Notes: generated by a model from the letters alone, not told the origin. Positions 9,353 through 20,952 are shown, counted from the stretch's first letter. The stretch is DNA of 49,197 nucleotides from Acidimicrobiia bacterium (GCA_036446035.1 JAZFSG010000095.1:1-49197); one strand, 5' to 3'. A program made the numbers and translations.

Positions 9353-9823
9353 CTATTCACTGAGATCGGCGATCGTCACCGATAGGTGCTGGAACAGCGC
9401 GGCGCTCGACAGGTGGATGTTGACTCCGTGGGCCCCTCCGCCGATGGCGACCTGCCCGTCTGGCACGGACGAGTCTGCGAACACCGGGAACCTGGACGCG
9501 GCGCCGAGCGGAGTGATGGCGCCACGCTCATAGCCGGTGGCCTCTCTGGCTTCTTCGGCTGATGGCATCGTCACTCTGGAGACGCCAAGTGCCTTGCGCA
9601 GTTTCGGCCAAGACATCTGGCGCGGACCTGGCATGAGGATGAACAGGTAGTCGTCGGTGCCTCGGCGGACGATCAGCGACTTCAGGAGATGCTCTGCGTC
9701 GATTCCCTGAAGCTCGGCGCTCTCCTCAACCGACTTAGCCCGCTCGGTTCGCACTACGTCGAATTCGATGTCGGAGCCCTCGAGCTCAGCGATGGCCGGA
9801 GTCGACTCAGGCTCAGATCTCAT
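9353..9823 (-). CDS. YbaK/EbsC aminoacyl-tRNA editing family protein
   Basis: LLKSLIVR, W.KLRKALG, A.EATGYERGAITPLG, IGGGAHG. Confidence 0.85.
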   Translation of the reverse strand: MRSEPESTPAIAELEGSDIEFDVVRTERAKSVEESAELQGIDAEHLLKSLIVRRGTDDYLFILMPGPRQMSWPKLRKALGVSRVTMPSAEEAREATGYERGAITPLGAASRFPVFADSSVPDGQVAIGGGAHGVNIHLSSAALFQHLSVTIADLSE

Positions 9824-10415
9824 CGAGGAGCTGCTGCTTCTTCTCCTCGAACTCGGCGTCGGTGATGGAGCCGAGACGGTGAAGCGAGGCCAGGCGTTCC
9901 AGCGTCGCGGTCGGGTCCTCCGCTATCTCCTTACCGATGGCCGCGACGCGGTCCTCGCGGACTTGATACAGGAGCGACTGGAACTTTTCCGGCGATCCGA
10001 TATCGGTGAAGTGGCTCTGCCCCATCTCCCCCGCGGACTCGATTACGAGGTCGCCGGACCGCAATACTCGCTCGAGGATGGTCTGGCTGAACCGAACGTC
10101 ATTGATGTTCTCCAGCGGCAGGTCAACCCCTCGCCTGGCGATGATCCCCCGCCTCGTGATCAGGCGCTCGTCGGTCAGCACATACCAAGTGAAGAACCAG
10201 GTGACGAAGCGCCACAATCCCCAATAGAGCCAGGCGGCGAACGCGACGCCAGCGATAACGAGGGGCGCCGTGCCGTCCCAAAGCATGAAGGCGCCGATGC
10301 CGACCGCCAAGAAGAGCAACGACCACAGCGCCGGCACCGCCAGCATTCTCCAGTGAGGCCGAAACTCCGTGAGGATCTCTTCGCCCTCGGTGAGCAGTTC
10401 TTTGGGGAAAGCCAT
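9813..10415 (-). CDS. Membrane protein with bacterial PH domain and C-terminal SHOCT
   Basis: RPHW, two TMs, YVLTDERLITRRGII, GDLVIESAG, and C-terminal LERLASLH..G.ITDAEFEEKKQQLL. Confidence 0.85.
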   Translation of the reverse strand: MAFPKELLTEGEEILTEFRPHWRMLAVPALWSLLFLAVGIGAFMLWDGTAPLVIAGVAFAAWLYWGLWRFVTWFFTWYVLTDERLITRRGIIARRGVDLPLENINDVRFSQTILERVLRSGDLVIESAGEMGQSHFTDIGSPEKFQSLLYQVREDRVAAIGKEIAEDPTATLERLASLHRLGSITDAEFEEKKQQLLDEI

Positions 10416-10448
10416 GGGAAAAAGCCTAACGGCGGGCTGTCGGCTTTG

Positions 10449-10540
10449 GGCCGAGCGCCGCCAGGTCGGAGGGGGCTTGCTGTTTCCTCCCCACCAGAGG
10501 TGGCCGAGCGCCGCCAGGTCGGAGGGGGCTTGCTGTTTCC
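10449..10540. repeat. Perfect 39-nt direct repeat (REP-like), two copies, period 53
   Basis: GGCCGAGCGCCGCCAGGTCGGAGGGGGCTTGCTGTTTCC at 10449-10487 and 10502-10540. Confidence 0.9.
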
Positions 10541-10598
10541 AGCTCTTGCCACCACTCGAGAGGCGCCCGACGCGGCCGTGAGGAAGCTCAAAGCTCCC

Positions 10599-10655
10599 AA
10601 AACGAAAAACCCCGAGGGAGCCTTAGCCGAAGCTTTGGCCCTCTCGGGGCTTTCT
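10599..10655 (-). terminator. Intrinsic terminator closing predicted RNA-A (P7 hairpin of unit 1)
   Basis: Minus strand GAAAGCCCCGAG...CTTCGG...CTCGGGG followed by TTTTTCGTTTT. Confidence 0.7.
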
Positions 10656-11145
10656 CACGAGGCGACCTTGCGACCGCTCCGAGGTCCCTCCGAACCGAAG
10701 TTCTTCGGGCGTGGCCTCTGCAGTTCGATCCAGTGAGTCCGAAGACCCTCTGGGCCGTCCCCCGTGAAGGGGTACCCGTAGAGGCCGCTCTTCCGGCCCT
10801 TTCGAGCCTTCAGAGTGTTGGAACCCCGAGGGAGCCTCAGCCGAAGCCTTAGCCCTCTCGGGACTCCAGTCGAAGCGACCTTGCGACCGCTCCGATTCCT
10901 TCCGGGCCGAAGCCCTTCCGGAGCGGCTCCGTTCGGTTCGATCCAGTGAGTCCGAAGACCCTCTGGGTCGTCCCCCGTGAAGGGGAAACCCGGCGAAGCC
11001 GTCCAAGGACCCTTGCGAATCCCTAGAAGAGATTCCGTTTCGTTGAGGCGGTTAAACCTCCCCGTCTCCCTTGCGAGAGTGGCGGAACCTCACCCGTTGG
11101 ACCCGAAGGTCCTCTGGGTCTCCGCTCAGTTGCCTGAGCTGAGGA
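10599..11145 (-). ncRNA. Putative novel structured ncRNA 'RNA-A' (~545 nt): 5' domain plus two tandem ~210-nt modules (11027-10820 and 10815-10599)
   Basis: Seven cUUCGg and six GNRA-capped hairpins on the minus strand, G-U pairs valid only on that strand, covariation between copies, own promoter and terminator, no credible ORF. Confidence 0.75.
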
Positions 11146-11149
11146 GAGA

Positions 11150-11178
11150 AACTTAAGAGCCGAATGCCCGATGGTCAA
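11150..11178 (-). promoter_or_regulatory. Sigma-70/SigA-type promoter for RNA-A
   Basis: Minus strand TTGACC-N17-TAAGTT (-35 at 11178-11173, -10 at 11155-11150), directly upstream of the first hairpin. Confidence 0.7.
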
Positions 11179-11511
11179 GCTGGAGAGGTAGGAAGTTTTC
11201 GCGTCTCAGTTCCACTTTTCGCGCAGTGCCAAGTGCAGCTTTCGCGCACTTCCGAGGCCTCGGAGGTGCGCAGTCTCAGGCATGGCGGAAGGGCACGAAG
11301 AAGCGGAGCTTCGCTGCGCCGCACGACATCGCGAACGCAGGCATCGCGATACCGGCGTGCGGTTGCGGAGGCAGGAGGGAAGATCACGATCGAGCCCTTT
11401 CATCATCGCCGCGATGAGGAGGCCCGAGTCCGTTGACGGAGGTGGAAGGTCGAGGCCGATCCGATTGACGGAGGTGGAGAGGGTCGATACCGCGATCTTC
11501 TCCAGAATTAC

Positions 11512-11726
11512 GGAAACCCCGAGGGAGTCTCGGCCGAAGCCTTGACCCTCTCGGGGTTCCTCTTGAGGCCACCTTGCGGTTGCTCCAAGTTCCCTCCGAA
11601 CCGAAGTTCTTCGGGCGTGGTCTCGTCGGTTCGATCCAGTGAGTCCGAAGACCCTCTGGGCCGTCCCCCGTGAAGGGGTACCCGGCGAGACCGCCTCCCT
11701 GAATCCTTGCGGACCCTGAGAGGAAG
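11512..11726 (-). ncRNA. Putative novel structured ncRNA 'RNA-B' (~215 nt), single copy of the same module
   Basis: Same P1-P7 architecture; 56-nt core (11629-11684) identical to 10723-10778; three cUUCGg and two GCAA loops. Confidence 0.75.
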
Positions 11727-11730
11727 CTGA

Positions 11731-11759
11731 AACCTATCCCATCTCGCGGCAACCTTCAA
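11731..11759 (-). promoter_or_regulatory. Sigma-70/SigA-type promoter for RNA-B
   Basis: Minus strand TTGAAG-N17-TAGGTT (-35 at 11759-11754, -10 at 11736-11731), directly upstream of P1. Confidence 0.68.
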
Positions 11760-11798
11760 GTGGGAGAGAGTGATTGTTTTCGCGTTCTCGGAGCCCTC

Positions 11799-11833
11799 CG
11801 AATTACACGCGTGTCACTCGCTTGTCGTAGAAT
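11799..11833 (+). promoter_or_regulatory. RecA-NDp/PafBC-like leaderless promoter with near-palindromic 21-mer
   Basis: CGAATTACACGCG-TGTCAC-N10-TAGAAT, then 7 nt to GTG 11841. Confidence 0.6.
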
Positions 11834-11840
11834 CACGGTC

Positions 11841-12704
11841 GTGGATACCACTCTTGAAGAAGGGGTCAGACCCAACGAGATCACGCGGCTCTCCCCCAGC
11901 CGCGCCTCTGACTTCAAGCTCTGCCCGCAGCTGTTCAAGTTCAGGGCCATCGACCGGCTGCCTGAGCCCTCGACTGTGTACCAGGCTCGGGGCACTACAG
12001 CTCACCTCGCGCTGCAGCGTCTCTTCGATCTTCCATCCCCGGAGCGAACTCCCGAAGCACTCTTCAATCTCTTCCGCAAGGCTTGGGTGGAGCTGAAGGA
12101 TGAGGAGTACCCCGGCCTCTTCGAGTCCGTCGAGGAGGAGCGTGCCTGGGGGTTGGAGAGCCTCGAGCTGCTCGCCAACTACTTCCTGGTCGAGGATCCG
12201 CGTAGCTTCGATCCAGTCGATCGCGAGCTCGACATGACAGAAGATCTCGACTCGGTGGCCATGCGCGGCATCTTGGATCGCATCGAGGAGAACGAGAACG
12301 GCGATCTCATCATCGTCGACTACAAGACGGGCAAGGCGCCCCCCGAGCGCTACTCGCTTTCGGCCTTCTTCGCCCTCAAGATCTACGCCCTGCTCATTCG
12401 CAAACGAACGGGCCGCACCCCGGTCGAGCTTCGCCTGCTCTACCTGAACGGTCCCGACCTCTATCGACTCGAGGTCAACGAAGGGCAGCTGGTGGCGATG
12501 GAGAAGCAGGTCAAGGCTCTATGGACTGCCATCCAGCGAGCGATCGCTCAGGATCAGTTCCCGACGCGCGTCAGCCGGTTGTGCGATTGGTGCTCCTTCA
12601 AAGAGATCTGCCCTGCCTGGGAGAAGACCGACGAGGCTGCCCTGGTCGAGTCCGCCGTCAACGCCGGCATCAACGCTGGCATCAGCACCGGCGCCGCCTC
12701 CTAG
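11841..12704 (+). CDS. PD-(D/E)XK RecB/AddB/Cas4-like nuclease with 4-Cys (Fe-S staple) motif
   Basis: LSPSR..DF..CP, GT.AH, RGILDRIE, IVDYKTGK, LKIYA, LCDWCSFKEICPAW. Start GTG 11841 chosen from the leaderless -10. Confidence 0.9.
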   Translation: MDTTLEEGVRPNEITRLSPSRASDFKLCPQLFKFRAIDRLPEPSTVYQARGTTAHLALQRLFDLPSPERTPEALFNLFRKAWVELKDEEYPGLFESVEEERAWGLESLELLANYFLVEDPRSFDPVDRELDMTEDLDSVAMRGILDRIEENENGDLIIVDYKTGKAPPERYSLSAFFALKIYALLIRKRTGRTPVELRLLYLNGPDLYRLEVNEGQLVAMEKQVKALWTAIQRAIAQDQFPTRVSRLCDWCSFKEICPAWEKTDEAALVESAVNAGINAGISTGAAS

Positions 12705-14855: not shown

Positions 14856-14921
14856 GAATCTCCCTTCGGTCAATGCAAGATATCCAACGGAACAACAACC
14901 CGAAACGACCCACGGTCTTCG

Positions 14922-14943
14922 TGTCACATCCGCGCTGTAAGTT
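14922..14943 (+). promoter_or_regulatory. RecA-NDp/PafBC-like leaderless promoter of adnAB
   Basis: TGTCAC-N10(ATCCGCGCTG)-TAAGTT, then 7 nt to ATG 14951. Confidence 0.6.
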
Positions 14944-14950
14944 CGGCGGC

Positions 14951-17905
14951 ATGGTGACGCGGATTGGACCCGAAGACTGGCCGGAGGCCGTCGCCAGGAC
15001 AGAGGGACCGCAGATGATCGTCTCGGGTCCTGGCGCAGGAAAGACGGAGTTTCTGGTACGACGCGCCCTCCACCTGATCAACGAACTCGGGGTCAAGCCG
15101 GAGTCGATGCTGCTCCTCAGCTTCTCGCGGCGTAGCGCCTCGGACTTGCGACATCGCATCTCCAGCCGCCTCAATCGCTCGTTCACCGAAGTGCCGTCTT
15201 CGACCTTCCACGCGCTGGCAGCACGCCTCATCGAGGCCAACGGCCCCCAGGTCTTGGGACTGCGCCGCGTCCCGGCGCTGCTTACTGCGCCCGAGCAAGT
15301 CGATCTGGTCCAGAGCCTCCTCGCCACTGAAGATCCCAAGCGTTGGCCGGTGCCACATCGAGCCATGCTGACGAGCCACACGTTCGCTGTAGAGGTCACT
15401 GACTTCATACTGAGGTGCCGCGACCTGTTGGTCGACGCTCCGACTCTGGCGACACGGGTCCAAGAGCGCGACCAATGGCGTGGCCTCGATCTCTTCCTGT
15501 CGCGTTACGACGCGCGGCTAGCGCAAGAGGATCGCATCGACTATGGCACGTTGCAGTCACGGGCAGTCGAGGTGCTTGCGGACGAGGAGGTGGCCGCCCA
15601 GGTGACTGCTGCCCATCCGTACATCCTTGTCGACGAGTTCCAGGACACCACGCGGGTCCAGGCCGAAATGCTGCGCCTGTTGTATGGCGGACATCGCAAC
15701 CTGACAGTCACCGGCGACCCCTACCAGTCGATCTACAGCTTTCGGGGGGCAGACGCCTCCAACCTCACGGACTTCCCGACATCCTTTCCCGATGCCGATG
15801 GCAATCCCGCCGCCCACTTTGCCCTCACGACGAGTTTTCGAGTCCGCCAGGAGATCCTGCGCTCCGCCGAGCGGATCACGGCCGGCGGAGCGCTGCCCGA
15901 GGTTGCCGGTCCCGTTGAGTCCGCTCCCGGCCCATCGAGCGTTGAGGTCTATCGGTTCACACAGCAAAGCGAGGAAGCGGAGTGGATCGCCGCTGAAGCC
16001 GAGCGACTGCATCGGGTAGAAGGCATTCCCTACGGCGAGATCGCGGTCCTCGTTCGCACCAAGCGCCGCATCCTCAGCGAGCTGTCGCGGGCCCTCGACC
16101 GCCGTGGCATCGCCCACGACCGGCCCGACGCGCGATCGATCGATCAGCCGGCTATCCGCATCGTCCTCGACATCGTCATAGCGGCGACCGGCGCCGGTGA
16201 AGAGCGCGCAGCTGCGGTGCAGCGTCTGCTGCTTGGCCCTCTCTACTCGGTGACGCTTGGTCGATGGCGCGAGCTGGAACGCGCCGCCGCACGAGCCCAC
16301 ACGGGTTGGGTATCGGTGTTGAGGTCGGAGATTCCCGAGGCCGGCGACCTCGCAGACCTCATCGAGAACCCGTCTTGGGCCACAGACAAGCCCGCCGCCG
16401 ACGGGTTCTGGTATCTATGGGAGCACCTCGACCGGTTCGACGTCTTTGCCGTCGCCGCCGACGGCAGCGCTCGCCGCGCCTTGTCGTCGCTGTCGCAAGT
16501 CCTCACCCGCCTCCGCGAACGCAACGAGGGGGCCACCCTTGCCGACTACACGACGATCGCCGAAAGCGAGGAGTTCGAGGCGCTTCCCTTGCTCGCCTTC
16601 GACGCTCCGCAAGAGGACAGGCTCGCCCTCACCACAATGCACCAGGCCAAGGGGCTCGAGTTCCAAGCGGTCTTCATCGCCGATGCCACCGAAGGCGTGC
16701 TCCCCGACCTTCGGCCGCGTGACTCGTTCCTGGACACCCGCCTCCTCGACACCCGTCAATCCGTCGACCGCTCCGAATACGCGTTGGCGCGACTGCGTGA
16801 AGAGATGCGGCTGGCGTACACCGCGATGTGTCGCGCCTCGAGCCGCGTCGTGTGGACAACGACGGCTTCCGGCGTGGCCGAGGACCACGGCTCGCCAAGT
16901 CGGTTCCTTGCAGCCGTCGCCGGTGTGCTAACGGTTGACGATGCGCTGGAGTCGCCCGGCGATAGCAGTGTGCCCGTGACGCCGCGGGCCGTCTTAGCTT
17001 CACTTCGAAGAGCCGTCCGCGATGTTGGGTCAGGAGAGGCCGCGCCGCGACTCGCCGCCCTCGGCGCCCTCGCAGCTCGCAGCGACCTTCCAGCATTCGC
17101 CCATGGAACGGTGGAACGAGGTCCGGAAGACGGGCTGGTGGCGCCTGACATGACGCTCTCGCCGTCGCAGGCCGAGGCCTTCGACACCTGTCCCCGACGT
17201 TACGTCCTGGAACGCAGACTCCATGTTGGCGATACCTCGACCGTCTATCTGCACTTCGGAAGCCTCATCCATGAAGTTCTCGAGGGCACCGAAAAAGCCG
17301 CCCTCGACGCCGGGGAACCGCGGGGCACCGAAGAAGCAGCCCTGATCCATCTGGAGGAACAGTTCGATCCTGTCCAATTCGGTGGCGAGCCATGGGCTAC
17401 GGGCTGGCGACGCCGAGCCGAGGAGTGCCTCGCCCGGCTCTACAGGAACTGGCCGGATGGGTCATTGCCCGTTGTCGATGTCGAGCGATCGTTTCGAACG
17501 GACATCGCGGGCCACACCTGGACGGGTCGCGCCGATCGGGTCGAGGGAGCTGAGGGTCGGCTGCGCATCGTCGACTACAAGACCTCGGGCTCTGCCAAGT
17601 CCGTCGCCGAAGGCAAGGAGTCTCTGCAACTCGCCTTCTATGCTCTCGCCGCCAACGCCGACGAAGGCCTCGGCGGGACTGTCTCCGCCGCGGAACTCTG
17701 GTACCCGGCTGCTCGTGGAGCCAAGTCGGTCACGGTCCGCAAGCTCGCCATGGAGGATCTCGACGAGCTAGAGGAACGGCTCGGCGAGGCGGCCACGGGC
17801 ATCTTCGCGGGGTCTTGGGAGCCCACACCGAGCGATGCCTGTGACCGCTGTCGCGTCCGCCAGCTGTGCCCAGCCTGGCCTGAGGGCAACGAGGCCTTCG
17901 CATGA
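14951..17905 (+). CDS. adnA: UvrD-like helicase / RecB-type nuclease fusion, AdnA-like subunit
   Basis: GPGAGKT, VDEFQD, GDPYQSIYSFRGA, HQAKGLEF, LAYTAMCRA; C-terminal CPRR...GRADRV...IVDYKT...QLAFYA...CDRC.....C. Confidence 0.85.
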   Translation: MVTRIGPEDWPEAVARTEGPQMIVSGPGAGKTEFLVRRALHLINELGVKPESMLLLSFSRRSASDLRHRISSRLNRSFTEVPSSTFHALAARLIEANGPQVLGLRRVPALLTAPEQVDLVQSLLATEDPKRWPVPHRAMLTSHTFAVEVTDFILRCRDLLVDAPTLATRVQERDQWRGLDLFLSRYDARLAQEDRIDYGTLQSRAVEVLADEEVAAQVTAAHPYILVDEFQDTTRVQAEMLRLLYGGHRNLTVTGDPYQSIYSFRGADASNLTDFPTSFPDADGNPAAHFALTTSFRVRQEILRSAERITAGGALPEVAGPVESAPGPSSVEVYRFTQQSEEAEWIAAEAERLHRVEGIPYGEIAVLVRTKRRILSELSRALDRRGIAHDRPDARSIDQPAIRIVLDIVIAATGAGEERAAAVQRLLLGPLYSVTLGRWRELERAAARAHTGWVSVLRSEIPEAGDLADLIENPSWATDKPAADGFWYLWEHLDRFDVFAVAADGSARRALSSLSQVLTRLRERNEGATLADYTTIAESEEFEALPLLAFDAPQEDRLALTTMHQAKGLEFQAVFIADATEGVLPDLRPRDSFLDTRLLDTRQSVDRSEYALARLREEMRLAYTAMCRASSRVVWTTTASGVAEDHGSPSRFLAAVAGVLTVDDALESPGDSSVPVTPRAVLASLRRAVRDVGSGEAAPRLAALGALAARSDLPAFAHGTVERGPEDGLVAPDMTLSPSQAEAFDTCPRRYVLERRLHVGDTSTVYLHFGSLIHEVLEGTEKAALDAGEPRGTEEAALIHLEEQFDPVQFGGEPWATGWRRRAEECLARLYRNWPDGSLPVVDVERSFRTDIAGHTWTGRADRVEGAEGRLRIVDYKTSGSAKSVAEGKESLQLAFYALAANADEGLGGTVSAAELWYPAARGAKSVTVRKLAMEDLDELEERLGEAATGIFAGSWEPTPSDACDRCRVRQLCPAWPEGNEAFA

Positions 17906-20900
17906 TTCCGACGCCGGAGCAAAGCGCAGTCATCGCCCATCCGCTCGAACCGTTGCGAGTCGTCGCCGGCGCTGGTGCCGGCAAGACGTCGACGATGGCG
18001 CTGCGCCTTTGCCACCTGGTCAGCAAGGAGCTAAGCGACCCGATCGAACCCGAGCAGGCGCTCGGCATCACGTTCACCAACAAGGCCGCCGAACAGCTCT
18101 CGAACAGCCTGCGAACCCTGTTGCCGGAACTAACCACTGCTGGGCGCAGCGTGGCTGTGGCCACATATCACGGTTTCGCCCGTTCGCTCCTCGTCGAGTT
18201 CGGCGCCCTCGTCGGCATCGAACGCAACGCCGTCCTACTGGGAGCTGGATATCAACGGGAGCTGATGCGCCGCGCTCTCGGGGGCGGGCACTACGACCAG
18301 CTCGATCTTTCTGCCGCAGCGAGGCGAGTCGAGGACATGAGCACCCTCTGGGGCCATCTCGGCGACAACCTGCGAACACCGGAGCAGCTGCTCACCCTCA
18401 GCGGGGATGAGGTGGTCGAAGCCAGGAGCGAGTTGGCGTCGGCGCTTGGCAGATACGCCAAGATCAAGCGAGACGTTGGCATGGTCGACTACAGCGATCT
18501 CATCGCTATGGCCCATGCCCTCATGGACAAGCACGAAGACATCGCAGACACAGTGCGAAGCCGATATCGCGTTGTGTTGCTCGACGAGTTCCAGGACACC
18601 AATGCCGCCCAACGACTGCTACTTCTCTCGATATTCGGGCGAGGGTTTCCCGTGACCGCGGTTGGCGATGCCGACCAGACCATCTACGAGTGGCGGGGCG
18701 CCTCGATCGACAACTTCGAGTCCTTCCCAACTCACTTCGCCAAGGCCGACGGATCCCCAGCGGCGACGCTGACACTCAGTGTCAATCATCGGTCGGACCG
18801 GCTCATCCTCGATGTCGCCAACGTCGTCAAGGGCCAGATCGGCGGCGACGCCGGCGTCGACCGGCTCCAGCCCGGCCCGAACGCCTCCGCCGGCTTTGTC
18901 GGTTGCGCCCGCCTCAACAACCGCAAGACCGAGGCAGAGTTCATCGCAGACGAGATCCAGCAACTCCACGGCGACCTGGCGTGGAGAGACGTGGCCTGCC
19001 TCTTCCGGCGCAACTCGGACATCGGCGCCATTCGTGAAGCGTTGGAGCGCCGCTCCATCCCGGTCGAAGTTGCCAGCCTCGGTGGCCTCCTAGACGTCCC
19101 GATCGTGGCCGACCTCCATGCCTGGCTGCGGGTGCTTGGCGATCCCGACGATGCAGTCGCCGCCCTGCGCATCCTCATCCGGGGGCGCTACCGGCTCGGC
19201 CTCGGCGACATCGGGCCTCTTGCCAGTTGGGTGCGGGCAGGCAAGGGCGAGAAAGATGGAGTGCCGGGACGGGTTCTCCTCGAGGCCATCGACGAGCTGG
19301 ACAAGGTTCCGCATCCCCGGGAGGCGGCTCGCGAGCGCCTCGAGCATTTCCGCTCGCTCTTTCGGGACCTGCTGCAGCAGGCGCAGGGAGTTTCCTTGGT
19401 CGAGTTGTGCCTCCGCATCCTCGATCGCACGGACACCTGGCAAGAGGTGGAGGCTCTCGACGACGCGGCACGACTTTCGGCCCGCCTCAACCTCTATCGC
19501 TTCCTCGACCTTGCAGAGGAGTGGAGTCCGCTCGAGGGCAGGCCTTCCCTGAGGTCGTTCCTGGAATACCTGGAGCTCCTCGCCGAGGAGACATCCACCG
19601 ACCAACTGGACACGGCTCGGCTGTCCGGCGAGGACGCCGTCGCGCTCATGACCGTTCATCGCGCCAAGGGGCTGGAGTGGCCGGCCGTCTTCCTTCCTGC
19701 GGTTGTCGACGCCGTCTTCCCGGCCAGGGGTGGCACCAGCGACGATCCCGTCGATCAGGCGCGCTCACTCCCCTACGAGCTACGCGTCGACCGGGACCAT
19801 CTGCCACAGCTTCCCGACAACAAGAAGGCACGCCTGGACGTGCTGCGACCCATTCGAATGCGCCAGGAGTGGCGGGTCGCCTATGTCGCCGTCACCCGCG
19901 CCAAGAGCCGCCTATATCTCACCGGAGCCCATTGGTATGGAGGCGTCAAGCCGAAGGACCCGAGCGAGTTCTATGACCTGGTGGCAGGCATTTCAGGGGT
20001 GACGGTTCTCGCAGATGAAGAGCGAGGCGAGCGACCACATCTCGATACCAATGACGGCCCTGCCGAGTCCGACCATGTCTTCGGAGAGGGAGGCTGGGAG
20101 GTGGGCCTGCGGCGGGCGCTGGCCGACCCGTCTTGGCCGGCTCAGGAGGCCGAACGTCTTGGGCTAGGTGCCGCCTACGCTGCAGCTATGGATCAAATGG
20201 GCATGGACCTCGGCGAAGCCACCGTCGAGGCCCAAGCCCCCGACGAGCCGTTCCGGACCTCAGTCACAGGTCTCGTTACCTACGCCACCTGTCCCAAGCG
20301 CTTCTTCTGGTCGGAGATCGACCGATTGCCCAGGCGACCATCCAAGGCTGCCAGGCGCGGCGTTGAGGTGCATCGCCAAATCGAGCTGCACAACCGAGGA
20401 GCGATGGCGCTCGAGTGGGAAAGGGACGATCCATACGACGTAGCTCCCGACGAGGGCAGCGAAAGGGTCACGGGGGCGTTCGACGCCTACATGGCCTCCC
20501 GGTTCGCCGCAGAGCGACCGGCGTTCGTCGAGGTGCCGTTCGACCTCGACCTGAAAACAGCCCGCATCCGCGGACGCATCGACGCCATATACGCCGACGG
20601 TGGCGATTGGGAGATCGTCGACTTCAAGTCCGGCCAACCCAGGGAAGACCCGGCGCGCCGGGTGCAGCTGGAGGCCTATGCGGTTGCCGCTACCGACGTG
20701 CCGTTCGGGGCAACTGCCCCCGATTCGCTACGGGTGACGTTCGCCTACCTCGGAGGTGGTCTCACCGAGGTCACCGAGGCGGTCGACGACGCCTGGCTCT
20801 CTGGCGCCCGCGGTCACCTGGGCGAGCTGACCGCGGCCGCTGCCGGCGAGGCCTACGACACGACGCCGTCAGATGCGTGCCGGGGCTGCGACTTCCTCCG

Positions 20901-20952
20901 CTTCTGCGATCCGGGCAAGGCTTTCGTGGAGGAAGCTCCCGCCACGCCCTAG
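17902..20952 (+). CDS. adnB: UvrD-like helicase / RecB-type nuclease fusion, AdnB-like subunit
   Basis: PTPEQ, AGAGAGKT, TFTNKAA, LDEFQDTN, GDADQTIYEWRGA, TVHRAKGLEW, YVAVTRAK; nuclease RGRIDAIY...VDFKSG...QLEAYA. ATGA overlap with adnA. Confidence 0.87.
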   Translation: MIPTPEQSAVIAHPLEPLRVVAGAGAGKTSTMALRLCHLVSKELSDPIEPEQALGITFTNKAAEQLSNSLRTLLPELTTAGRSVAVATYHGFARSLLVEFGALVGIERNAVLLGAGYQRELMRRALGGGHYDQLDLSAAARRVEDMSTLWGHLGDNLRTPEQLLTLSGDEVVEARSELASALGRYAKIKRDVGMVDYSDLIAMAHALMDKHEDIADTVRSRYRVVLLDEFQDTNAAQRLLLLSIFGRGFPVTAVGDADQTIYEWRGASIDNFESFPTHFAKADGSPAATLTLSVNHRSDRLILDVANVVKGQIGGDAGVDRLQPGPNASAGFVGCARLNNRKTEAEFIADEIQQLHGDLAWRDVACLFRRNSDIGAIREALERRSIPVEVASLGGLLDVPIVADLHAWLRVLGDPDDAVAALRILIRGRYRLGLGDIGPLASWVRAGKGEKDGVPGRVLLEAIDELDKVPHPREAARERLEHFRSLFRDLLQQAQGVSLVELCLRILDRTDTWQEVEALDDAARLSARLNLYRFLDLAEEWSPLEGRPSLRSFLEYLELLAEETSTDQLDTARLSGEDAVALMTVHRAKGLEWPAVFLPAVVDAVFPARGGTSDDPVDQARSLPYELRVDRDHLPQLPDNKKARLDVLRPIRMRQEWRVAYVAVTRAKSRLYLTGAHWYGGVKPKDPSEFYDLVAGISGVTVLADEERGERPHLDTNDGPAESDHVFGEGGWEVGLRRALADPSWPAQEAERLGLGAAYAAAMDQMGMDLGEATVEAQAPDEPFRTSVTGLVTYATCPKRFFWSEIDRLPRRPSKAARRGVEVHRQIELHNRGAMALEWERDDPYDVAPDEGSERVTGAFDAYMASRFAAERPAFVEVPFDLDLKTARIRGRIDAIYADGGDWEIVDFKSGQPREDPARRVQLEAYAVAATDVPFGATAPDSLRVTFAYLGGGLTEVTEAVDDAWLSGARGHLGELTAAAAGEAYDTTPSDACRGCDFLRFCDPGKAFVEEAPATP

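Follow-up and report, generated by a model that had tools for sequence, protein, structure and literature searches.

On the minus strand of a 49,197-nucleotide (nt) stretch of DNA from an Acidimicrobiia bacterium (GCA_036446035.1, JAZFSG010000095.1:1-49197; the window), three related elements of about 215 nt stand between 10.6 and 11.7 kb, and they raise the question of whether a peptide, a DNA repeat or an RNA is being conserved there. A first-pass annotation had proposed that base changes between the copies compensate one another, and hence that selection acts on RNA structure and not on DNA sequence or a peptide. Here, we find that the minus strand of the region encodes a highly structured non-coding RNA outside the catalogued families, in three paralogous modules, and that purifying selection maintains the pairing of their helices. 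These modules are very probably independently transcribed RNA genes, selected for structure and acting in trans. The copies have a mean column identity of 83% in a MAFFT alignment, reach a little beyond the previously annotated span of 10610-11692, and occupy the only three places found for them in a search of their own 1.98-Mb, 143-contig assembly.

Both minimum free energy (MFE) folding and the RNAalifold consensus give all three copies the same seven helices, P1-P7. A GNRA loop caps both P1 and P6; P3 and P4 branch from a three-way junction closed by P2; P5 contains an internal loop rich in purines (GAA/GGA); and P7 is a long 3' hairpin. The copies and their helices lie as follows, with bit scores from R1, a covariance model built from five sequences (below).

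11508-11723, minus strand: RNA copy A, R1 match of 225.3 bits; probably a transcription unit of its own (about 215 nt)
P1 11721-11694, P2 11692-11619 enclosing P3 11678-11665 and P4 11663-11632, minus strand: helices P1-P4 of copy A
P5 11615-11592, P6 11588-11563, P7 11560-11513, minus strand: helices P5-P7 of copy A
10818-11028, minus strand: RNA copy B, placed by MAFFT alignments (BLAST match 10822-11016; R2 hairpin match 10810-10868)
P1 11028-11002, P2 11000-10925, P3 10985-10972, P4 10970-10939, minus strand: helices P1-P4 of copy B
P5 10921-10898, P6 10895-10870, P7 10867-10820, minus strand: helices P5-P7 of copy B
10601-10816, minus strand: RNA copy C, the last module, R1 match of 219.2 bits
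P1 10812-10788, P2 10786-10713, P3 10772-10759, P4 10757-10726, minus strand: helices P1-P4 of copy C
P5 10709-10686, P6 10682-10657, P7 10654-10606, minus strand: helices P5-P7 of copy C

Copy B was not listed by the R1 cmsearch, probably because it adjoins copy C, and was analysed in the MAFFT alignments only. Predicted stabilities exceed those of shuffled sequences throughout (MFE -96.3 kcal/mol, z -2.84 for copy A; -102.9 kcal/mol, z -2.75 for copy B; -96.0 kcal/mol, z -2.49 for copy C). Only copy C has a full U-run after the hairpin, with a terminator-like site at 10624-10606 followed by TCGTTTTGGG; the U count after the stem is 3 in copy A and 2 in copy B.

The sequence variants described by the first-pass annotation are all found on the minus strand. 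The outer stem of P2 is GGUCUCG/CGAGACC in copy A (11.6 kb), GGCUUCG/CGGAGCC in B (10.9 kb) and GGCCUCU/AGAGGCC in C (10.7 kb), and the P5 tip is GAAC-UUCG-GUUC in A and C and GGGC-UUCG-GCCC in B. P7 reads GGGUC/GACUC in A and GGGCC/GGCUC in C, its tip GGC-UUCG-GCC in A and AGC-UUCG-GCU in C, with copy B having GGGCU/GGCUC and GGC-UUCG-GCU at these places; P1 differs in sequence between the copies and is in each a hairpin with a GNRA cap (GCAA, GCAA, GAAA). For the three copies alone, 42 of the 74 RNAalifold pairs are invariant and 205 of 222 cells are paired. Both sides have changed in 10 of the 74 pairs with all copies still paired, and one side has changed with pairing kept in 8. At least one copy is unpaired in the remaining 14, 8 of which are in P1, where MAFFT misregistered copy A or gapped copy B or C. 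Variable columns are about equally frequent at paired (51/148) and unpaired (20/67) positions, so the stems are not merely slower to change; their changes are coordinated.

With two copies from another genome (G004) added, 94.8% of cells are paired compared with 90.0% after shuffling, and 19 pairs have double changes compared with 9.5, neither value being reached in any of 500 shuffles. Sliding one partner by a single column lowers pairing to 54-58%, a control that favours the structure, as the structure was derived from the same five sequences. The signal in these three to five sequences is beyond chance, and they are related and on their own a small sample. The covariance model R1, built from the five, finds full-length relatives in other genomes. 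Among 18 such homologues, aligned to the model and to that extent biased towards the structure, double changes occur in 55 of 74 pairs (29.1 in shuffled alignments) and 92.8% of cells are paired (77.0% shuffled, 54-58% at a one-column slide). The 3' hairpin could be followed further, in a MAFFT alignment of 148 distinct copies in which the outer stem was pre-set by the search pattern; it holds 147 double-change cells compared with 46.8 in shuffles. Covariation is clear at the hairpin positions free of the pattern: pair 26:47 is CG in 49 copies, UG in 49, UA in 42 and other in 8; pair 32:41 is GC in 122, AU in 17 and GU in 8, with none unpaired; pair 33:40 is CG in 120, UG in 14, UA in 7 and AU in 5; and pair 14:59 is AU in 82, GU in 42 and GC in 17. 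Structural alignment of the five sequences with RNAalifold, and then of homologues, thus finds pairs kept above the shuffled level, and the 18 homologues and 148 hairpins, which lie outside the derivation of the structure, support selection on RNA structure as first proposed. Read on the minus strand, the three copies contain 31 G·U cells and 4 A·C cells. This excess, together with an invariant G·U pair in the hairpin, indicates that the selected molecule is the minus-strand RNA and no DNA hairpin.

The same 3' part recurs widely in one order of Acidimicrobiia. BLAST finds it in 32 of 41 relatives, a tally that includes the own genome (G000) and two unpublished genomes (a match in G022, none in G011), on which alone no claim made here depends. 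A model of the hairpin matches 35 of 36 sampled genomes of the same order, usually twice per genome, and 4 of 114 genomes from other orders of the class, there only weakly (34-39 bits). A phylum-wide sample gives matches in 4/4 genomes of the same order, 0/6 from other orders of the class and 1/140 others (weak). These searches show that the RNA family is restricted to one order of Acidimicrobiia. Within the hairpin, G24·U49 is kept in 148/148 copies, an A·C mismatch at 22:51 in 112/148 and a UUCG loop in 119/148. The 155 nt on its 5' side, in 213 distinct sequences, fall into 68 BLAST clusters, of which the body type of the window copies is the fifth largest, with 10 members; with one conserved 3' module on 68 body clusters, the family is modular. 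When either hairpin arm was searched singly in the genome, the few scattered matches formed no pattern. On the 3' side, 136 of 202 hairpins have a CGCG in the next 16 nt, and the conserved tail TTTCTCGCG is the reverse complement of CGCGAGAAA, a variant of the promoter box described below.

How these genes are expressed is suggested by predicted promoters and by contigs from RNA libraries. Two promoters and a leader are placed on the minus strand.

11731-11759, minus strand: predicted promoter of copy A, TTGAAG (11759-11754), 17-nt spacer, TAGGTT (11736-11731)
11150-11178, minus strand: predicted promoter of the leader-B-C unit, TTGACC (11178-11173), 17-nt spacer, TAAGTT (11155-11150)
11029-11146, minus strand: structured 5' leader before copy B, 118 nt, with GNRA- and UUCG-capped hairpins

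TANNNT-type promoter layouts are actinobacterial, and the calls were inferred from this layout and its conservation across genomes. The predicted start from the first promoter, near 11724, coincides with the start of the covariance-model match; the second fits the pattern GCGAAA..TTGAC..TANNNT, and the same layout is kept upstream of homologues. The leader folds more stably than any of 200 shuffles (MFE -57.8 kcal/mol, z -4.62) and is covered by an RNA-library contig over 11000-11112. Given the promoters before copy A and the leader, copy C directly after copy B and a full U-run only at copy C, there are probably two transcription units: copy A alone (about 11724 to 11510) and leader-B-C (about 540 nt, from about 11143 to 10600). 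Contigs of 4 RNA libraries from 4 studies span 10611-11112 and 11512-11563, 12 of 17 contigs of run X17 being at least 99% alike, and three contigs (X15, X16, X18) extend over the B/C junction by more than 31 nt to either side. No RNA-library contig lies on 10300-10569, 11164-11487 or 11758-11900, which is not evidence of silence. A search of sequencing runs returned none with at least half of the words, RNA runs reaching 0.11-0.16.

Upstream of both predicted promoters stand boxes of the form CGCGAAA, four on the RNA strand of the window and none on the opposite strand.

11776-11784, minus strand: CGCGAAAAC box upstream of the copy A promoter
11197-11246, minus strand: three CGCGAAA boxes (starts 11246, 11223 and 11203) upstream of the leader-B-C promoter

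Of 202 RNA genes, 153 have one or more forward boxes in the 400 nt upstream of the hairpin, and the regions upstream of the 202 together hold 269 forward boxes, 23 reverse boxes and 10 control words. Tandem boxes occur at only three places in the own assembly, one being the leader-B-C promoter and the third preceding nrdJ. In five near-complete relatives there are 15 such places, every one upstream of a gene in this set (RNA genes 8, dnaA 4, nrdJ 1, dnaB 1, a 5'-nucleotidase gene 1), and 1 match for the control. Upstream of dnaA a forward box is present in 22 of 23 genomes, mostly in the arrangement CGCGAGAAA-N12-CGCGAAA, and upstream of nrdJ in 19 of 23, at a background of 0.034 boxes per 900 nt per strand. 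Before dnaA, nrdJ, dnaB and the 5'-nucleotidase gene, the CGCGAAA and CGCGAGAAA boxes are phased at about 20 nt or form inverted pairs 25 nt apart. The box loci thus look like a candidate regulon for replication and deoxynucleoside triphosphate (dNTP) supply, and we infer one DNA-binding factor common to the box-bearing promoters.

Several smaller observations concern these boxes. Across the order the box loci include L174-L200 (dnaA), L159 and L204-L228 (nrdJ), L165 and L171. On contig C103 of the own assembly, at about 2346-2530 (847-1030 of locus L160), a gene of the phosphoenolpyruvate-mutase/isocitrate-lyase family has a leader of about 125 nt with a promoter-like TTGACT-17-TATCTT ahead of it, and the box-bearing loci C39 and C103 have no match in Rfam. 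Upstream of nrdJ in one relative (G019, locus L172), palindromic boxes that resemble NrdR boxes and DnaA-box-like TGTGGACA words stand between the CGCGAAA boxes and the gene.

The RNA genes also have a fixed chromosomal place. In all loci with both flanking genes (51/51), every hairpin lies between the starts of a PD-(D/E)XK nuclease gene and a bPH_2 gene, which in the window are the following.

9813-10415, minus strand: bPH_2 and SHOCT membrane-protein gene (Pfam PF03703, 2.5e-18; PF09851), the downstream syntenic neighbour
11760-12704, plus strand: PD-(D/E)XK (Cas4/RecB-like) nuclease gene (Pfam PF12705, 6e-36), the divergent syntenic neighbour

Matches of the nuclease gene to Cas4 (NCBIfam, PADLOC) are all below cut-off. 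The overlap of the listed open reading frame (ORF) with the copy A promoter makes a true start downstream of 11760 probable. The bPH_2/SHOCT gene is apparently leaderless, with a leaderless-type promoter TAGGCT at 10428-10423, 7 nt 5' of the ATG.

For the function of the RNAs we tentatively favour, at somewhat less than an even chance, a role in trans as protein-binding RNAs with the 3' hairpin as the handle. Three observations point to a protein handle: the hairpin sequence is fixed where pairing would tolerate change; its G·U pair, A·C mismatch and purine loop are kept; and a conserved single-stranded seed is all but absent. The sequence-invariant hairpin would then be held by a dedicated protein through the fixed G·U, the conserved A·C mismatch and the purine internal loop, the variable structured body would confer specificity or stability on each paralogue, and expression of the RNAs would be coupled to the programme of replication and dNTP supply. 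It is decidedly unlikely, though conceivable, that the RNAs go further and form the RNA arm of a replication/dNTP regulon, in which they are switched on by the factor that reads the phased CGCGAAA boxes upstream of dnaA, dnaB and nrdJ, and the invariant hairpin recruits a dedicated DNA-metabolism protein; candidate partners would be the neighbouring PD-(D/E)XK nuclease or, 3 kb away, the AdnAB-like pair of helicase-nucleases. If true, the RNAs would regulate the replication or repair of the chromosome.

Beyond the model-fitted alignment of the 18 homologues, several points weigh against independently transcribed, protein-binding RNAs. A generic E. coli-style sigma-70 scan of 10300-12000 gave no sites at threshold, the proposed hexamers scoring below it. 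The RNA-library contigs are blind to strand, ends and level, and a contig over two modules is no proof of one transcript. The invariance of the hairpin is partly a product of construction, since the search pattern set its outer stem, and its conservation could also be that of a special terminator or processing signal. The CGCG tail resembles a reversed promoter box, so its conservation may act at the DNA level, and the sharing of boxes indicates co-regulation at most and no function. A binding partner of the RNAs is neither known nor predicted, and the neighbouring proteins (membrane protein, nuclease, dehydrogenase) have no recognised RNA-binding function, except for a YbaK-type tRNA-editing protein (Cys-tRNA(Pro) deacylase-like).

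That the copies are a DNA-level repeat, similar to repetitive extragenic palindromes or miniature inverted-repeat elements, or a repeated coding segment with no RNA gene, is barely credible and is contradicted by the data: the copies are tandemly repeated and overlapped by long ORFs, but they occupy a single genomic locus with synteny fixed across the order, which argues against a mobile repeat, their G·U-rich pairing holds on one strand only, and RNA-library contigs cover them. The annotation had discounted a peptide as the selected product, and it is indeed unlikely, given indels of 1 and 2 nt among the copies and the lack of any Pfam match in the five overlapping ORFs scanned. A cis-acting leader (riboswitch or attenuator array) controlling the bPH_2 operon through the terminator-like 3' hairpin would account for the co-directional hairpin found upstream of bPH_2 in 74 of 77 loci, at a median distance of 105 nt, and for the terminator-like hairpin that ends copy C. 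We consider it highly improbable, however, because the bPH_2 gene has a TANNNT promoter of its own beside the start codon (6-10 nt before it in 55 of 70 orthologues, that of the window included), so that the RNAs are not its 5' untranslated region; moreover, the upstream copies have separate promoters, the next element after them is another RNA gene and no ORF, and the most conserved part is the hairpin, with no aptamer-like core.

Among trans-acting alternatives to protein-binding RNAs with a hairpin handle, base-pairing small RNAs (sRNAs) similar to 6C would bind mRNAs through exposed loops or junctions, possibly those of genes for replication or nucleotide metabolism, the hairpin being only a terminator and stabiliser. 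This fits independent genes with their own promoters, and paralogues with differing bodies could have differing targets. 6C, as described in PMC6486639, is a precedent that acts without a chaperone and has dnaB as a target; like the window RNAs, the 6C of that report is a conserved actinobacterial sRNA of stable hairpins linked to DNA replication. Its role could be vacant here, as 6C (RF01066) has no match in the window or in 21 relatives, absence from the relatives being weakly shown because the search control matched only below cut-off. In contrast to 6C (about 75 nt, C-rich loops), however, the window RNAs are about 215 nt long with UUCG and GNRA tetraloops, hardly any single-stranded sequence is conserved, and the best-conserved part is a closed helix; we therefore regard base pairing as an unlikely mode of action. 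It is very unlikely that they are RNA-polymerase-binding RNAs, functional analogues of 6S or Ms1 in a lineage without detectable 6S or Ms1. Length (about 200 nt), high structure and RNA-library contigs of large word depth, although depth is a poor measure of expression, would agree with such a role. 6S (RF00013) is found neither in the window nor in 21 relatives (the unpublished G011 included), a silence that means little as the control was found in only 5 of 14 genomes. Ms1 (PMC9130861, PMC4191392) is an RNA-polymerase-binding sRNA of Actinomycetota, and the main text of the Ms1 survey (PMC9130861), in which the gene lies between an oxidoreductase gene and a gene for a HAD-IB hydrolase or 'inhibition of morphological differentiation' protein, makes no mention of Acidimicrobiia. 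Like Ms1 and 6S, the window RNAs are structured sRNAs, about 200-300 nt long, of high-GC Gram-positive bacteria, with independent genes in a conserved chromosomal place. They differ in having no rod-like fold with a central bubble and no 6S-type closing stem, the 5' and 3' ends being unpaired and P1-P7 separate helices in series, in occurring as several paralogues with unrelated bodies, and in being flanked by PD-(D/E)XK nuclease and bPH_2 genes, unlike the synteny of Ms1.

Comparison with catalogued families leaves the RNAs unassigned. Rfam 15 has no match at gathering score in the whole window, and at E up to 10 the region 10300-12000 has five chance-level hits of 13-18 bits, compared with gathering scores of 40-145. 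The raiA RNA (RF03072) has no match in the window even at E up to 10 and none in 21 relatives, the latter search being uninformative as the control matched nowhere. According to PMC10861870, raiA has helices P1-P6, two pseudoknots and 51 conserved nucleotides; like the window RNAs it is described there as an intricate orphan non-coding RNA of about 200 nt with strong covariation, in Actinomycetota including Acidimicrobiia, whereas the window family is order-specific and modular. The CCCGAGAGG arm was reminiscent of the loop of a PyrR binding site, a candidate that was rejected: RF00515 matches were weak, below cut-off and at other loci (3 of 5 genomes), with none at the RNA loci of the five.

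Tandem paralogous sRNAs under one transcription factor are known in OmrA/OmrB, PrrF1/PrrF2 and Qrr1-4, which are short, Hfq-dependent and largely unstructured base-pairing RNAs of Proteobacteria. The window RNAs are likewise adjoining paralogous genes with common promoter boxes; unlike those sRNAs they are long and almost fully helical, and their common part is a 3' hairpin and no seed.

Most of what is known here of the order of Acidimicrobiia concerned comes from genomes of uncultured members in sediment, soil and water, and we found no regulatory RNA described for it in the literature. Nor did we find a paper on such an RNA or on the CGCGAAA motif, in a search limited to papers without their supplements (such as those of PMC10861870 and PMC9130861). 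A family supported by covariation and lying under RNA-library contigs would be a promising candidate for a new ribonucleoprotein or regulator, given that it combines an invariant 3' module with dozens of differing structured bodies and with boxes in common with dnaA, dnaB and nrdJ, all three of them unusual features. The box motif offers a first handle on the control of replication genes in this lineage, and both the RNA family and the motif are testable in cultured relatives.

Other features of the surroundings are minor. At 14873-20952 of the window, two adjacent genes of about 1010 amino acids each encode UvrD-helicase and PD-(D/E)XK nuclease domains and resemble the AdnAB pair; their synteny with the RNA locus is kept in many relatives. 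The spacer between copy A and the next promoter (11164-11487) contains a 23-nt repeat (11424-11446 and 11456-11478), and its ORFs have no Pfam match. Between copy C and the start of the bPH_2 gene, within 185 nt that are not unusually structured (z -0.49), lies an exact 39-nt direct repeat (10449-10487 and 10502-10540) with a period of 53 nt.

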